Below, in pieces: positions 4,695-24,186 of a DNA stretch of 24,186 nt. Within the stretch, counting starts at the first letter, position 1; each line of letters starts with the position of its first letter. The translations under genes and the position numbers were made by a program. Source of the DNA: a virus. Taxonomy: Duplodnaviria; Caudoviricetes. Where the stretch lies: positions 1-24,186 of the IMG/VR virus record IMGVR_UViG_3300027774_000011; one strand, 5' to 3'. The notes under the pieces are model-generated. The model was not told the origin of the DNA. It did not search any database and saw only the letters and a program-made list of their open reading frames with translations.

Positions 4695-4941
4695 AGACTT
4701 TCCTCTTGACTAGCGATGGATCAACAGTTGGGATGATTTTGTTTAGCTTATCAAGGGGGCTGCCTTCGTAAGCAACACCCGTTATATCATTAGTCTTTAG
4801 CCAGTCAGCGGCTGCTTTTAAATCTTGTGTAGTAGCTTCACCGCTACGTATTCTGCGTAGAAAATCCTCTGTTACAAGGTAGTGTAGCTCGTTAAAACTG
4901 TCCTCGGTAGCCTTCTTAGGTATTACCCTTGGATTTGTCAT
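4678..4941 (-). CDS. terS: Terminase small subunit (T7 gp18-like DNA maturase A)
   Basis: 87 aa; FNELH..VT..FL.RI.SGEAT..DL.AA..WLK.NDIT pattern typical of gp18-like proteins; lies upstream of terL. Confidence 0.8.
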   Translation of the reverse strand: MTNPRVIPKKATEDSFNELHYLVTEDFLRRIRSGEATTQDLKAAADWLKTNDITGVAYEGSPLDKLNKIIPTVDPSLVKRKVYGKNF

Positions 4942-5096
4942 TCTATGTCTAGTCCTTTTTTAACTATAGCTAGTGCTTTATCGTCTAGGTCGTTATCTGT
5001 TTGCTCGACAAGCTTTTCTAATAAGTCTACGACGAAGCCTTTAAACTTGTCACTTTTTAAAAAAGCCAAAACGATTGGTTTTAGAATTGCTAGCAT
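4938..5096 (-). CDS. Small 52-aa protein with amphipathic N-terminal helix (holin-like candidate); not in the ORF track
   Basis: Translated by hand: MLAILKPIVLAFLKSDKFKGFVVDLLEKLVEQTDNDLDDKALAIVKKGLDIE*. Its TGA overlaps the terS ATG (ATGA 4941-4938). Confidence 0.8.
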   Translation of the reverse strand: MLAILKPIVLAFLKSDKFKGFVVDLLEKLVEQTDNDLDDKALAIVKKGLDIE

Positions 5097-5613
5097 TTTC
5101 TTTAGGTAGTAATGTTTGTATTGGTACTATATCTGAGCATATGTGATATACTCTTGTATTGGGCCGTACAGTAAAGCCCCTTTGTTGCAACTCTGCACAC
5201 TTCAATGCTCGTACAAGCTCGAAGTCTAGCTGCATTTTTTCTTCTTGACGTTTAGCTATGCGTCTACATTGTCTAAGACCTTCTCTGTCCAGTGGCACCA
5301 TAAAGTTAATCTGGAATCCCCAGTTCTCACTTATAACGTATCCATCTGGATCTACAGGTTGAGTATCATTGCCCATGTAGAACGGGCTAAAAGTCATGGT
5401 TGACCCATTGCATGCAATGTTTGGGCCGTAGTTTTGACGTGATGATGCACCGTTGTTTTGGAACTGTACAGCTTGGTTAGTCACGTTGCCTGTAGCTGCT
5501 GCCACAGGGTTGCTTACGTTATCATTTTCTGCGTAAGCTGGGCTGCCTATTGCGAGAAGACAGACAAGGAGTTTGTAGTGGAGTTTATGGTATAGGTTGT
5601 GTTTATATCCCAT
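5050..5613 (-). CDS. Predicted secreted protein (about 187 aa; real start probably near 5613, not 5895)
   Basis: Signal-peptide-like KLLVCLLAIGSPAYA/EN, an Asn/Gln-rich segment, a beta-hairpin-like region, then a Cys-containing helical C-terminus. The upstream part of the 281-aa ORF overlaps another gene. Confidence 0.75.
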   Translation of the reverse strand: MGYKHNLYHKLHYKLLVCLLAIGSPAYAENDNVSNPVAAATGNVTNQAVQFQNNGASSRQNYGPNIACNGSTMTFSPFYMGNDTQPVDPDGYVISENWGFQINFMVPLDREGLRQCRRIAKRQEEKMQLDFELVRALKCAELQQRGFTVRPNTRVYHICSDIVPIQTLLPKENASNSKTNRFGFFKK

Positions 5614-5903
5614 TGCTCTACTAAACCAGCTGGTCTGGTTGTTGTTTCTAAAGTCCAAGGCAGTGTGTTGTCTGTTACGGAAAATGTTGTACCAGTTGCG
5701 GATATATCTGCTGATGGAGTTACATTGGTTCCTGACCATGTGTTGACTTCCGCACCAAAGACTTGCTTCTGGGTTACTTCCGTTATAGTTTGGGTAGTTG
5801 TCGTTGTGCTGTTCATCGACCCTGTGGTAAACTGGGGCGTGACAGTATTCGCTCTCGCTACTGCGGGTGACAACAGGGCTAAGAGTAGAATCCATTTCTT
5901 CAT
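5547..5903 (-). CDS. Predicted secreted Thr-rich protein (118 aa)
   Basis: Classic signal peptide MKKWILLLALLSPAVARA/NT. The ATG at 5903 overlaps the stop of the upstream gene (ATGA). Confidence 0.8.
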   Translation of the reverse strand: MKKWILLLALLSPAVARANTVTPQFTTGSMNSTTTTTQTITEVTQKQVFGAEVNTWSGTNVTPSADISATGTTFSVTDNTLPWTLETTTRPAGLVEQWDINTTYTINSTTNSLSVFSQ

Positions 5904-19301: not shown

Positions 19302-22068
19302 GTTTGTAAAATCTGGGTGAAAAGTCTCCTTCCCAAGCCAATGCACGAAGCGTAGCTGGAGCGGGGTGTGATGATCTAAGTATTACATCGACATTTGTGT
19401 TTCTTTCATATACAGGTATAGTCTTAACGAACTCATCTAGGTATGGTGCATCAGATACATCGTATTCATCCATAACTGAAGATTCATATACTTCTACATA
19501 GTCAGGTTTACCAACACGCTTAAGTGTAGTTTCGTAAAGACCTATTTTACCGAAGTGTATTTTAATTCTATGTATTACTAATGATGCGTTTACATCAGCT
19601 CGGCTAGCGTTACCTTGCTGTCTAGTTGGATAGAATCTAGGAAACTTAACCTCGTATGGATAGATATAACCTATCACAAGAGTTGCTCCAGACCAGTTAC
19701 CCGGTAATGTAAAGCTTGTACCAGATACTGTGGGTTTAGCATATCTACCAACGCGTGACGCACTGGTGTTTGTGTCAATGACTACTAGATCGTGGTTTGG
19801 TGTAGTAACTGTATTTAGCCACCCCACACCACTGAAGGTGGTGATATTCGTAGTTGCGTTAAAGCTGCCACCGCTAACAGTAGTATGATTATCCACGTGT
19901 AATAAGAAATCTGTTTCATCTTGTACTATACTTGGATCGTTTGATGTTTGCACTAGCTTGATACTCTGTAAATAGTAATCACTATCTAAAAAGAAATACT
20001 CATCATTTATAATAAAATGATATGTTAATGGATTATTTAGTTTCCATTTAAACCATGCAGCTTGTTGTCGTTGCTCAGATACTTGAAAATACCTATAACC
20101 AAATACTTCATCTGATCCAGTTTTACTCATTAGTATTATAGAGTTTTCTCTGGAGTTAGTCAGTAAGTCTATATCTTTCGGTAATAGTGTAGGTACAACT
20201 TTACTAACGTCAACTATTGATGGTTCTCCTTCTCTTCGTATATTTGCCATTTCATTGAAACGACTAAACTTACCAGAGTTATCAATGTAAGCTATTGTAG
20301 TGCCTAGTGATATTGGAGCTATAGTTTCGTTATAATTAAAGGTAGATATACTTCTAAGCTTAGCTGTATCTGGGTTAAATACTGTATCGTCTGCTGCAAG
20401 TAAAAACTGTTGGTTTGTACTAAATATCAGTAAACCTGTGTTAGTCTCGATACCATCAAATAATTCTGATGGAAACATCGACGCGGCAGATATATCAACA
20501 GGGTCGCTAGCTGATACTGTGAGAGCTGTTTCTATAAAGAAGTCAGGGTTTCCTAATGATCCCGGGCGTGACGTTATTACGTTTTCTCCTGACAGGAGTG
20601 CTAGCCTGTTTCGGAAAAACAGTACTTTATTAATACGAGCCCCAACAAAAGACGGTAAGGGGTTAGTTAAATCATCACCGACCTCCCTATCTTTATATGT
20701 AAACTGCTTGACAGTAAATGTTGTAGTAGCTGTACGCTGTATAACCAGCGGCATGTTAGTTAAAGTTTTAGCTATACCCGGTTTCGCACACTCAGTCCAA
20801 GAGCCCACACCATCTTTGTTATTTTGACCGTCAAATCTAAGATAGTAGTCATCTTCATCTGCTCGTAGAGCGTTAGATACTTTTACTATATACCCATGTT
20901 TACACTGGTTAGGTAAGTTTTGAACATCGTTTATAGATGATTGAAAGCATCTCATCAAGTCTTCTTCTACAACATCGACGGTAAAAGGGTTAGCACTTGA
21001 TAGATATATACCTGTACCTATATGTTTACCTGTAATACCACTAGGTAAATCTGCTAAAATACCACCAATAATAGTGTCAGCTGTTACTGCTGTATCTGCG
21101 TCAAAAGGTGTAGGTTCTGGACGTATAAGACCGTCACCAGCTGATGAAACAGTTGCGTTAACTTGTGTAGATTCGTGATCTTCTACGCGTATAGTATAGT
21201 CAAAGTTTTGTGAAGCAGAGTCTAGTGTTACTGTAACAGTATCACCTGTAACCCAACCTTCCCCGCCATGTAGTAGGACGACTTCTCTGTTGTAGCTACA
21301 TCTATAGTTATTACCACCGGGGCCGTTTTGACTAGCACTATAGTTAGGACTAACACCTTGTTGTCCCAAAGTATTGATTCTAAATATTAGATTCTTTTTA
21401 GATCCTGAGTCTATACTAAACACCTGTGTACCGATACCGGGGCAGTGGCCTGTACCATCTGACTCGTCTAGTGTATCACTCTGTATCTTTATACGTGTAG
21501 CTCTGGTTACTGTTGTAACTGTTGTATTAGCACCGTGAATATTAAGGCCATACTGCCTTCCGTTTTCTGTACGTAGTAACTCTACGAACCCGAAGTGAGC
21601 ATCTGGAGTAGCATCTGTAGTTCCCGTTGTCCCAACGAGAGTGTTAGCATTAGAAGTATCACGGCTGTTAACAAAGGTGGTATCATTGATAGTAAGAAAT
21701 TGTAAGTTTTCTGGGTTGCTTGTTGCTAAATAGTTTTGTATAGCTGTTTGGCCTCCTGTGCCGTAAGCTGTAGTCATCTGTTGACCGTCACTACAACGCC
21801 ATACTCTTACCTGACCATCAGCTGCTACTTGACCTATGTAAGATCCTTCAGTCTTATCACGAAAATAATGAAACCACGAACCACCACTCTGTACGTTAGC
21901 TAGCTTGTCAGTTCCAATTCTTTTAGCACCCGGTCTTTTAAATAGACCTCTGGTTATATCTGGTATTGCGTTTGTTACCTCTGTTACCTGACCGGGAAAT
22001 TTTAGCTGGTCAGGCTGTTCTGACATTCCTAGTGAGTATTGAGGTATAGTTTGTGTAATGCCTGCCAT
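19294..22068 (-). CDS. Tail tubular protein B (gp12-like nozzle)
   Basis: GMSEQPD...N.IPD...GL.KRPG at the N-terminus, PSFVG..I....FFRNRL, Q.AW.KW, and C-terminal WEG. Confidence 0.95.
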   Translation of the reverse strand: MAGITQTIPQYSLGMSEQPDQLKFPGQVTEVTNAIPDITRGLFKRPGAKRIGTDKLANVQSGGSWFHYFRDKTEGSYIGQVAADGQVRVWRCSDGQQMTTAYGTGGQTAIQNYLATSNPENLQFLTINDTTFVNSRDTSNANTLVGTTGTTDATPDAHFGFVELLRTENGRQYGLNIHGANTTVTTVTRATRIKIQSDTLDESDGTGHCPGIGTQVFSIDSGSKKNLIFRINTLGQQGVSPNYSASQNGPGGNNYRCSYNREVVLLHGGEGWVTGDTVTVTLDSASQNFDYTIRVEDHESTQVNATVSSAGDGLIRPEPTPFDADTAVTADTIIGGILADLPSGITGKHIGTGIYLSSANPFTVDVVEEDLMRCFQSSINDVQNLPNQCKHGYIVKVSNALRADEDDYYLRFDGQNNKDGVGSWTECAKPGIAKTLTNMPLVIQRTATTTFTVKQFTYKDREVGDDLTNPLPSFVGARINKVLFFRNRLALLSGENVITSRPGSLGNPDFFIETALTVSASDPVDISAASMFPSELFDGIETNTGLLIFSTNQQFLLAADDTVFNPDTAKLRSISTFNYNETIAPISLGTTIAYIDNSGKFSRFNEMANIRREGEPSIVDVSKVVPTLLPKDIDLLTNSRENSIILMSKTGSDEVFGYRYFQVSEQRQQAAWFKWKLNNPLTYHFIINDEYFFLDSDYYLQSIKLVQTSNDPSIVQDETDFLLHVDNHTTVSGGSFNATTNITTFSGVGWLNTVTTPNHDLVVIDTNTSASRVGRYAKPTVSGTSFTLPGNWSGATLVIGYIYPYEVKFPRFYPTRQQGNASRADVNASLVIHRIKIHFGKIGLYETTLKRVGKPDYVEVYESSVMDEYDVSDAPYLDEFVKTIPVYERNTNVDVILRSSHPAPATLRALAWEGDFSPRFYKRV

Positions 22069-22724: not shown

Positions 22725-22752
22725 AAGAAAAAAAGGGGAGCCGAAGCTCCCG
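22725..22752 (-). terminator. Intrinsic terminator after the major capsid gene (T-phi analogue)
   Basis: Minus strand GGGAGC-TTCG-GCTCCC followed by CTTTTTTTCTT: a C(UUCG)G tetraloop stem plus U-tract. Confidence 0.9.
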
Positions 22753-22763
22753 TATAAAGTGAA

Positions 22764-23915
22764 TTAACCAAATGCTGTTGGTTTTGTTGCTGTACCAGCG
22801 AATAGCTCGACGGCAGCAGCTGGGTTTAAGAAATCTGCACCCATAGCTAGACGACCTAAGATAACGTCTCCTTGGTATACCACTGAGATGTCTCCAGATG
22901 TTGTCTGAACTTGAGGGCCGATTGCCTCAACACATGCAGCAGCTTCCTTCTGGAAGATAAGTCCACAAGAGTTGTTGAACTTAGCCTGCTGACCGTAATC
23001 GTTTACGGTTACGTTGTGGTCATCACCCATAGCCTCTTCTACGAAGCTACCTGTGTTTCCGGGATCTGCTTTACCGGGGTTTGTTGCAGAACCTGTACCG
23101 TACTTAGTACCGAAGTTTCCGAAGAAAGGAATATTCATTGACTTGAAGATCTGGATTCCAGCGATCTCGATGATGCCTTGTCCTGACTGCAATGCGTCTC
23201 CTCTTTCGTTACGGTTGATTAAGCCGTTTGATTCTACGTTTTGTATAAGTGCGTAGTACTGTCTTGGGTTAAGTACAGCTACTCTACCGTCACCAGATAC
23301 GCCCTTCTCGTCTAACGCAGCAGCTGCATCATAGAACGCGTTGATTAATAATCCAGCGTCGTAAGCATCAGATGCGTTAGTTCCTGTTGTACCTACACGT
23401 ATTTGTGTTCCACCGGGCTCTACAAAGTTAGTCTTTGTAATTGGGTGTGCCTTACGTGCAGCTTTTGTGATAGCTCTGAAGATCTTTCTATCATACTGCT
23501 CTGCAAGAGCGTATCCGATCTTTCTAGAGATCTCACCTCTCAAGTCATAGTGTGAGAGTGTTTCATCTAGCTCATAAACAAAAGCTGAACTGATTAATAA
23601 ATCATCAACAGTTATTGTTTTTTCTGCTACTGGTGGTGCACCATCGTCGTTTCCTAAGATGCTTTTTCCGGGTGTATGATACTCGGCTTTTGTGCGTCCA
23701 GTATAGATGAACTGAAGACTCTTCCCGTTTGTAAGAGTTCTTCTCATAACAAGGTCACGTGCTATCGTGTTCCTTTGGAAGCCTTTGAACATCTCTCCTG
23801 AAAACAGTTTCAGGTAGAGGGCTCTGGCGTCGGTTCCCGGAGTACCGTTGGCGGTTCCGGAGTCAATACCACCTCTAAATAGAGAGGCGTTATTGCCTGC
23901 TGATTGTTGTGCCAT
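22764..23915 (-). CDS. Major capsid protein (T7 gp10-like)
   Basis: ALYLKLFSGE, RTL.NGKS.QF..TGR, EK.IT.DD.L, YDLR.E.S...G.ALA...D, and G..AMG...L.P.AA. Confidence 0.97.
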   Translation of the reverse strand: MAQQSAGNNASLFRGGIDSGTANGTPGTDARALYLKLFSGEMFKGFQRNTIARDLVMRRTLTNGKSLQFIYTGRTKAEYHTPGKSILGNDDGAPPVAEKTITVDDLLISSAFVYELDETLSHYDLRGEISRKIGYALAEQYDRKIFRAITKAARKAHPITKTNFVEPGGTQIRVGTTGTNASDAYDAGLLINAFYDAAAALDEKGVSGDGRVAVLNPRQYYALIQNVESNGLINRNERGDALQSGQGIIEIAGIQIFKSMNIPFFGNFGTKYGTGSATNPGKADPGNTGSFVEEAMGDDHNVTVNDYGQQAKFNNSCGLIFQKEAAACVEAIGPQVQTTSGDISVVYQGDVILGRLAMGADFLNPAAAVELFAGTATKPTAFG

Positions 23916-23944
23916 TTCTAAGAATGAATATTAGTTTACTTTTC

Positions 23945-24030
23945 TCAGATCTGAAATTTTTGGCCAGTTTTTTGTGGTCTATCCCACCGTCTAGACGGCT
24001 TAAGGTATCCTCCGTAGAGGGCAAAAGCCA
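23945..24030 (-). promoter_or_regulatory. Structured 5' leader of the capsid gene
   Basis: GGCTT...CCTC-TACG-GAGG...AAGCC stem with UNCG loop; palindromes CCGTCTAGACGG (23987-23998) and TCAGATCTGA (23945-23954); GTGG-GATAGA-CCAC hairpin. Confidence 0.5.
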
Positions 24031-24031
24031 A

Positions 24032-24082
24032 TAGAGTAGGGAGGAGTTGCACCTCCCAAGTCAACTATTTCTTGACTACTCT
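24032..24082 (-). other. tRNA-like mini-structure (7-bp acceptor-like stem plus T-arm-like hairpin)
   Basis: AGAGTAG(24082-24076)...GGAGG-TGCAACT-CCTCC-CTACTCT(24039-24033)-A. Confidence 0.5.
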
Positions 24083-24121
24083 TGTGTACTCAATGCCACG
24101 ATATACGTAGGTTACAGTCAT
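24065..24121 (-). CDS. 18-aa YRG-motif peptide (DUF4278-like 'downstream peptide')
   Basis: MTVTYVYRGIEYTRVVKK*; GGAG RBS at 24131-24128; directly follows the riboswitch-like RNA. Confidence 0.75.
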   Translation of the reverse strand: MTVTYVYRGIEYTRVVKK

Positions 24122-24137
24122 TGTAAACTCCATATAC

Positions 24138-24186
24138 CCAAGCCCCGTTCCATGCTTGGATCTCATGCGTCCCGAAGGATGAACGG
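24138..24186 (-). ncRNA. Glutamine-II riboswitch (Downstream-peptide motif)-like RNA; 5' end at the window edge
   Basis: Minus strand CCGTTCA-TCC-TTCG-GGA-CGCATGAGAT-CCAAGC-ATGGAACGGG-GCTTGG. The 5' CCGTTC can pair with loop GAACGG to form a pseudoknot, and a YRG peptide gene follows. Confidence 0.8.

Follow-up and report, generated by a model that had tools for sequence, protein, structure and literature searches.

What does a 51-nt tRNA-like element do at the boundary between a small peptide gene and a phage capsid gene? The window, by which we mean the whole stretch of 24,186 nt that was analysed, is a fragment of a marine T7-like cyanophage with genes mostly on the minus strand. Its major capsid protein shows 68-76% identity to named cyanopodovirus capsids (the nearest being S-SBP1, S-RIP2, P-GSP1 and P-SSP7), and the tail tube and nozzle genes lie behind the capsid gene. 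About three quarters of the last 287 nt of the window can be matched, at about 80%, to P-SSP7, P-SSP2/3 and P-GSP1, and the matching stretch is unannotated in those records. Here a riboswitch aptamer and a peptide ORF are followed by the element, which we call the mini-tRNA, and by the capsid leader (Table 1). The aptamer and short peptide upstream of the mini-tRNA are the known Glutamine-II/Downstream-peptide/yfr6 cassette (RF01704; PMC2864571, PMC2518516); the available parts of these two papers mention no tRNA-like 3′ element, and the mini-tRNA is not confined to the cassette. An alternative 33-aa frame for the peptide opens at 24166, and a search of it in Pfam and NCBIfam gave no match.

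Table 1. Features of the window and further phage copies of the mini-tRNA
Feature	Position	Strand	Remark
Mini-tRNA, a mimic of the tRNA top half made of an outer stem, a short hairpin in the linker, a T-arm (UGCAA in its loop) and an unpaired A	24032..24082	minus	51 nt; immediately before capsid leader
Outer stem, 5′ strand AGAGUAG	24082-24076	minus
Linker	24075-24057	minus	19 nt; holds UCAA/UUGA hairpin
Linker hairpin replacing D and anticodon arms	24061..24075	minus	loop ends in peptide UAG, 24067-24065
T-arm GGAGG-UGCAACU-CCUCC	24040..24056	minus	5-6 bp, 7-nt loop; best conserved part
Outer stem, 3′ strand CUACUCU	24039-24033	minus	unpaired A at 24032
Discriminator-like A and UU spacer	24030..24032	minus	predicted cut between 24032 and 24031
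Capsid leader	23916-24029	minus	covarying stem domain, small hairpin, loop-less palindromes
Leader 5′ domain: long stem, C/AUAC internal loop, UACG hairpin	23997..24029	minus	would be 5′-terminal structure after the cut
Leader palindrome 1, GUCUAGAC	23989..23996	minus	relatives: AU or no centre
Leader hairpin GUGG-GAUAGA-CCAC	23974..23987	minus	paired variants among relatives
Leader palindrome 2, UGGCCA	23961..23966	minus	second palindrome of at least 6 nt in 63/158 leaders
Leader palindrome 3, UCAGAUCUGA	23945..23954	minus	sequence freely variable among relatives
Major capsid protein gene (T7 gp10A-like)	22764..23915	minus	Pfam PF21703, E 1.9e-72
Terminator-like hairpin and U-run, 3′ of capsid gene	22736..22751	minus	consensus scan only
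Glutamine-II (Downstream-peptide) riboswitch aptamer	24137..24185	minus	Rfam RF01704, 41.5 bits, E 3.8e-7
18-aa YRG peptide ORF	24065..24121	minus	start picked from relatives and GGAG 6 nt upstream
Extra copies, P-SSP7	600-651, 1001-1048	coding	model/descriptor; between early genes
Extra copies, S-TIP37	near 1015, 1468	coding	model/descriptor
Extra copies, Syn5	near 2728, 19865	coding	model/descriptor
Extra copies, S-EIVl (two)		coding	model/descriptor

Fold and geometry of the mini-tRNA

The two stems, the 7-nt loop, the peptide UAG and the unpaired A described by the first-pass annotation are all found on the minus strand. Its statement that the element is not a tRNA gene also holds: ARAGORN called no tRNA in the window at the mini-tRNA, and Rfam placed no family over it (tRNA, tmRNA, Y RNA-like, ribozymes and others), the aptamer being the only match in the window. 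There is no cloverleaf with an anticodon arm, the linker being merely 8-20 nt among relatives. A T-arm with a U-(U)-C-R-A loop is present, G replacing U at position 55, and a D-loop GG is not in a clear position for a tRNA elbow. Folded as a single sequence, the element reaches -19.1 kcal/mol (z = -2.62; 5 of 200 shuffles as good), and the opposite strand also scores z = -2.32. Because folding of a single sequence is weak evidence, the case rests on comparison with relatives.

In a sequence-only alignment of 28 copies, 98.2% of the T-arm cells are paired and double changes occur at five of the six pairs. In two further alignments (A2 and A3) part of the T-arm pairing is a product of the selection, because the T-arm itself had retrieved 32 of the 43 A2 rows. 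The outer stem held in one register is only 49-52% paired in unfitted alignments, because the stem slides. When it is free to find its best site, it forms 4.98 Watson-Crick pairs versus 4.06 (sd 0.09) in shuffled strands, and crossing 20 distinct strands gives 4.35 versus 3.45 pairs. When 22 copies from hosts and phages, picked by hand, are aligned by sequence alone, 91.9% is paired with double changes in 12 of 14 pairs, and the score is 0.42 versus 0.157 when shuffled and 0.06-0.14 when slid. A model-fitted alignment of 65 copies agrees but leans toward the model, and kinship inflates all these controls. Paired changes, the kind of evidence that had been proposed as a check on the fold, are thus seen in the T-arm and in most pairs of the hand-picked alignment. 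These paired changes indicate that the mini-tRNA fold is real, conserved and under selection, that is, a non-canonical tRNA-like fold with a T-arm and an acceptor-like stem.

The 7+5 geometry first proposed for the element needs revision, although the likeness to a tRNA top half stands. Energy minimisation prefers a 6+6 fold in which the linker forms a hairpin of 5 bp. Of 54 distinct relatives, 35 have a T-side stem of 6 bp, 14 one of 5 bp and 5 one of 7 bp; the outer stem supplies the rest of about 12 bp. The 7+5 split is particular to the lineage of the window, the 6+6 split is commoner, and the feature that is kept is the length of about 12 bp from the T-loop to the unpaired base, not the stem junction. 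Across 54 distinct mini-tRNAs and full tRNAs, the T-loop ends at one of two distances from the G that opens the leader helix, 15 nt (42 elements) or 16 nt (12 elements), the parser having permitted 13-19 nt. None of these 54 encodes CCA. The base after the helix is A in 40, U in 5 and C in 2 of the 47 distinct mini-tRNAs, and UU or UUU follows in all 47. On the 5′ side, the outermost pair is formed in 28 of the 47, G stands at +1 in 3, and 10 have an imperfect outer stem with four of six pairs. The elements range from 40 to 52 nt, and many T-loops bear G at position 55; the loop pattern U[U/G]C[A/G]A was built into the parser and is not in itself a finding.

A predicted RNase Z cut and the occupants of the slot

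RNase Z clamps the tRNA elbow and measures to the 3′ end, CCA acting as an antideterminant (available text of PMC4919913), and the accessible part of PMC10989914 reports that cyanobacteria encode the enzyme. By such processing plant mitochondrial t-elements and tRNAs generate mRNA 5′ ends, according to the portions available of PMC1920247. We propose, with a probability of about 0.55, that host RNase Z cuts after the unpaired A of the mini-tRNA, leaving the upstream mRNA with a protected 3′ end and the capsid mRNA with a hairpin-capped 5′ end. In this proposal the T-loop and the 12-bp helix would be measured by the host enzyme and the long phage message would be cut just 3′ of the unpaired A (24032). 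The upstream mRNA would then be closed by a compact structure able to withstand 3′ trimming, possibly bearing an added CCA, and the capsid mRNA would start with two free U's and a stem that slows attack by RNase J/E. The cut is inferred because the parts that the RNase would read are kept and the rest is dropped, the 3′ side is fixed, and true tRNAs substitute at the same distance. Against it speak the imperfect outer stem, the lack of a well placed D-loop GG, and the G at position 55 of many T-loops, which occurs in none of the 26 host tRNA arms checked. With its fixed 3′ side and loose 5′ side the element suits RNase Z better than RNase P; moreover, an RNase P cut at 24082 would strip the upstream stop codon in most loci, which argues against RNase P as the main event. 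The earlier suggestion of an RNase P/RNase Z processing or mRNA-stabilising signal is thus narrowed: selection for the mimicry, and the fact that real tRNAs take this slot with identical spacing, make a role in processing or stabilisation most likely, and RNase P is the less suitable partner. The element lies at a gene boundary, and among contigs from four metatranscriptome runs of one study, which carry no information on ends or levels, one bridges it (23968-24109); this contig may be precursor RNA or DNA.

To compare the slot before the leader, we gathered 80 loci through their capsid proteins, a further 120 through the leader motif, which is conserved, and five named records. The leader anchor is present in 195 of 206 loci including the window, 27 were too short, and 168 were analysed; some contigs are counted twice and many are close kin, so that these are loci and not independent events. 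The slot holds a mini-tRNA in 77, a full or eroded tRNA in 9, another capped hairpin in 81 and nothing in 1. (The raw parser output was 81 other hairpins, 75 mini-tRNAs, 11 tRNA-sized elements, two of which are misparsed mini-tRNAs, and 1 without an element; the parser misreads L009/L157, L001 and L026.) On a quick capsid tree of 59 rows at least 12 switches among the three slot types are needed, and the mini-tRNA accounts for at least 5 switches on well supported branches. Since the types switch so often and yet 167 of 168 slots are filled, the parts appear to be often swapped and the slot hardly ever vacant. The sole locus without a slot element (L038) has the peptide, the element and half of the leader stem deleted, and may be an assembly artefact.

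True tRNAs in the slot include tRNA-Gly(UCC), called by ARAGORN in 3 of 52 loci, and Rfam finds a tRNA there in L094, L088 and L146. Two tRNA-Gly(UCC)-like genes have shrunken D arms (L034:882-948 and L146:348-415) and are possible intermediates from tRNA to mini-tRNA. Elsewhere the place ahead of the capsid leader is taken by an abiF RNA with an unusual tRNA directly behind it (L088:509-622 and L329). The shrunken-D-arm genes make descent from a tRNA plausible, and they are what speaks for a neutral remnant of a tRNA gene or att site, which had been raised as the alternative in the first-pass annotation. A neutral remnant is disfavoured by the paired changes and by the slot being vacant in only 1 of 168 loci. 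It also finds no source in the host: in a search of host tRNA 3′ ends in five genomes, 30 similar arms include 26 that belong to tRNAs, and every one of these has a UUC loop and a different stem; none has GGAGG/CCUCC with the loop of the window. Nor, in P-SSP7, is an integrase adjacent, as expected of an attP site: its int gene (4896-5768) lies 15 kb from the element at 20630 (the window ends 100 nt upstream of the element). We regard a remnant as the least probable of the readings considered here.

The second slot occupant has a stem of about 10 bp and a nearly invariant 15-nt loop, CACCUCARWGUMGGA (L120:374-419, L084:3460-3505 and 79 more). It has no Rfam match and lacks the U[U/G]C[A/G]A loop. 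In 65 of 66 distinct cases a gap of 3-4 nt separates it from the same G that opens the leader helix. Its CAGWGU presumably resembles the loop of the iron-responsive element. It is found in about 1400 IMG/VR stretches by estimate, and in 2 of 121 host genomes versus 22 control matches, which is not above chance. The same hairpin also stands before another long uncatalogued stem-loop (L405, L419, L449), with two copies on one contig. The presence of a different hairpin in 81 of 168 loci means that either this hairpin is also a substrate or the slot needs just a stable helix. It leaves room for RNase E or a plain decay barrier, that is, a structure that involves no tRNA enzyme, shields the upstream mRNA from 3′-to-5′ decay and directs RNase E toward the AUU between the helices. 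Such a barrier would account for two unlike helices with the same 3-4 nt spacer; cyanobacterial RNase E prefers U two bases past its cleavage site, and structure close by can steer it (PMC8682795, available part), a preference that the AUU spacer suits, and the enzyme is induced in P-SSP7 infection (PMC10989914, accessible part). On a pure barrier, however, the T-loop consensus, the fixed 12-bp length and the exchange with true tRNAs would all be needless, and we consider it rather unlikely.

The stop codon of the upstream gene falls within the 5′ half of the mini-tRNA (5′ strand or linker) in 48 of 50 loci, at positions +1 to +18, and in 36 of 50 loci the upstream gene is the YRG peptide, which is an undercount from an ATG-only script; psbA or other genes stand there in the remainder. 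Both counts speak for a relay, in which RNase P and/or RNase Z would act only with ribosomes off the peptide ORF, so that glutamine controls the processing of capsid mRNA and an RNase P cut strips the upstream stop. The mini-tRNA is, however, also found 3′ of psbA, a 182-aa gene, scaffold genes (behind the scaffold region in S-CBP42 and Syn5), early genes and host PM-3 genes, all of them lacking a riboswitch peptide, and 4 of the 70 loci with the riboswitch-peptide cassette carry the other hairpin behind it. The element is therefore not specific to the riboswitch peptide. With the stop codon wandering, the first pair often broken, G at +1 rare, and the overlap explained by tight gene packing, the proposed relay of riboswitch state to the capsid gene loses its footing and now seems improbable. 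Ribosomes finishing the peptide may open the 5′ strand of the mini-tRNA, as an optional overlay on RNase Z processing and not as its core function.

Copies elsewhere in phages and in hosts

Further copies were sought with a covariance model and a descriptor. The descriptor gave 10 matches (the window and one training copy included) versus 0-1 in eight shuffles, and 13 matches versus 0-2 in six shuffles in ten more genomes. In two of these ten only the other hairpin stands at the capsid gene and neither descriptor nor model finds an early copy; early copies are therefore not universal. All 23 descriptor matches, when inspected, lie at a gene junction on the coding strand. P-SSP7, S-TIP37, Syn5 and S-EIVl all have extra copies between early genes. 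Nearly all extra copies are followed by N-UU or N-U and a hairpin, and most of them then by an A/U- or A/C-rich spacer and a start codon. One genome (G006) bears four mini-tRNAs in a stretch of 800 nt, where they separate short ORFs; behind each comes a small hairpin, identical for all four, and then a start codon. In a pattern scan of IMG/VR, 55 distinct matches lie before the capsid leader and 55 elsewhere, a slot ahead of psbA among them; some of these other 55 are variant leaders or unrelated. The size and shape of the mini-tRNA and its several copies per genome could suit an RNA excised at both ends that acts in trans like mascRNA, for instance as a decoy for tRNA-binding or defence proteins. 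The constant placement at gene junctions on the coding strand, the wide variation in sequence and linker and the ill-defined 5′ end argue against it, and we hold such a small RNA to be very unlikely.

In the same phages a second mini-tRNA precedes a conserved structured psbA leader (L219, L231, L073:1507-1551, L080:251-295), which has no Rfam match, and a tRNA-Ala is inserted in this psbA slot in L231 and L265. A search for the host-type arm in other viral contigs gave 50 matches, comprising clear members and many weak ones in non-cyanophage contigs. Three contigs that are not cyanobacterial-looking (L625, L642, L634) show mini-tRNA-like folds followed by a strong Shine-Dalgarno and ATG. The mini-tRNA family may reach other phyla.

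In hosts, the covariance model finds matches in 11 of 41 genomes of the Prochlorococcus family, and PM-3 family genes have 12 of the 14 host matches at their 3′ ends. The host copies have no evident downstream hairpin and no Rfam match, and some are followed by U-rich tails. Among 50 PM-3 genes chosen by protein from 78 positive genomes (30 best loci and 20 more distant), 10 carry a mini-tRNA 6-27 nt behind the stop codon and none of the 20 distant ones does. Eight other PM-3 paralogues, read by eye, carry a hairpin and U-run at the same place. PM-3 genes (L505:980-1495, L513:1559-2095) are rich in Lys and Ala and resemble histone H1 in composition alone; a genome can have as many as five matches. 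Because some PM-3 paralogues bear a mini-tRNA and others a terminator-like hairpin, the mini-tRNA appears to behave in the host like an mRNA 3′-end signal. The same alternation and the U-rich tails might suggest a site at which host or phage RNA polymerase terminates or pauses. In phages, however, merely two or three U's follow and then an essential gene, and in the window a terminator scan does not call the mini-tRNA, which is followed by AUU and not by the tract of an intrinsic terminator. Termination or pausing is thus hardly probable, and host RNase Z remains our preferred partner of the element.

The capsid leader and comparison with known systems

The leader that would begin the released capsid mRNA is present in about 1900 IMG/VR stretches by estimate and has no Rfam match. 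A loop-less palindrome of at least 8 nt is found in 145 of 158 distinct leaders versus 28.7 expected, with 11 centres and 60 different sequences, which vary yet remain self-complementary; the leaders are related, so that these counts are not independent. The enrichment is limited to zero-loop stems, and the gain in dimer energy exceeds that of shuffles in 60 of 60 leaders tested. The first imperfect flank pair of the palindrome on the mRNA strand is G-U in 50 of 75 cases and A-C in none, which points to RNA pairing on the sense strand, though strand composition could add to the bias. Sequence and folding energies suggest RNA-RNA self-pairing of capsid mRNAs through the leader palindromes.

Two other identities of the leader were rejected. 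Inspected by eye, its helices are in the wrong order for an HDV-like (theta) ribozyme or another ribozyme, and Rfam has no such match; as a repeated phage promoter it also fails, the palindrome occurring exactly once in the window with near-matches at about chance level. In L389 and L347 the leader modules are permuted (small hairpin, palindrome, then stem domain), and Rfam does not call a pistol-like stretch in L389. Six non-cyanobacterial MAGs (L328-L330, L332-L334) contain a cyanophage capsid leader and are probably mis-binned phage contigs.

A wider reading, which we put forward tentatively and consider unlikely on present evidence, is that T7-like cyanophages punctuate the whole transcript with host-type mini-tRNAs and not with RNase III sites, and that released capsid mRNAs pair with each other via two or three palindromes, clustering for shell assembly or protection. 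Punctuation by tRNAs is known from mitochondria. If the cut is true, tRNA punctuation would also run gene expression in very abundant ocean viruses, mini-tRNAs would end some Prochlorococcus mRNAs, the lone tRNA genes ahead of capsid and psbA genes would be explained, and the elements would form a family of natural RNase Z substrates of 45-50 nt. The predictions specify exact cut sites in the cultured, genetically tractable P-SSP7, S-TIP37 and Syn5. The palindromic capsid leader is a second uncatalogued RNA. A literature search, with subscription papers mostly outside its coverage, found no description of the mini-tRNA or the capsid leader.

In coliphage T7, early and late mRNAs carry RNase III sites, which are long double-stranded hairpins between genes. 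Both these sites and, by prediction, the mini-tRNA are signals for a host nuclease between genes of a T7-like polycistronic message, and the mini-tRNA would serve T7-like cyanophages as RNase III sites serve T7; the mini-tRNA, however, is a tRNA mimic and not a double-stranded hairpin. In mascRNA and menRNA, which are likewise shrunken tRNA mimics acting as a processing signal within a longer RNA, RNase P makes the useful end at the 5′ side, whereas in the mini-tRNA the 3′ side is fixed. These two RNAs, at the ends of MALAT1 and MENbeta, are named as RNase P substrates in the available text of PMC4919913. With a canonical tRNA (RF00005), such as the phage tRNA-Gly(UCC) in the slot, the mini-tRNA shares the T-arm, a top half of about 12 bp, the discriminator, the lack of an encoded CCA and the distance to the leader; it differs in having neither an anticodon arm nor a proper D arm and in its movable stem junction.

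The mini-tRNA would work like the t-elements of plant mitochondria (Forner et al. 2007, PMC1920247). As far as the available part of that paper goes, both fold like a tRNA and have a T-arm motif, t-elements within a long transcript and the mini-tRNA presumably so; in both the 3′ end would equal the 5′ end of the next mRNA, and true tRNAs do the same job at other genes. In contrast to t-elements, the mini-tRNA occurs in phages and bacteria, measures 40-52 nt, has no anticodon arm and often has UGCAA in its T-loop; it also overlaps the upstream stop codon and is then followed by a dedicated hairpin.
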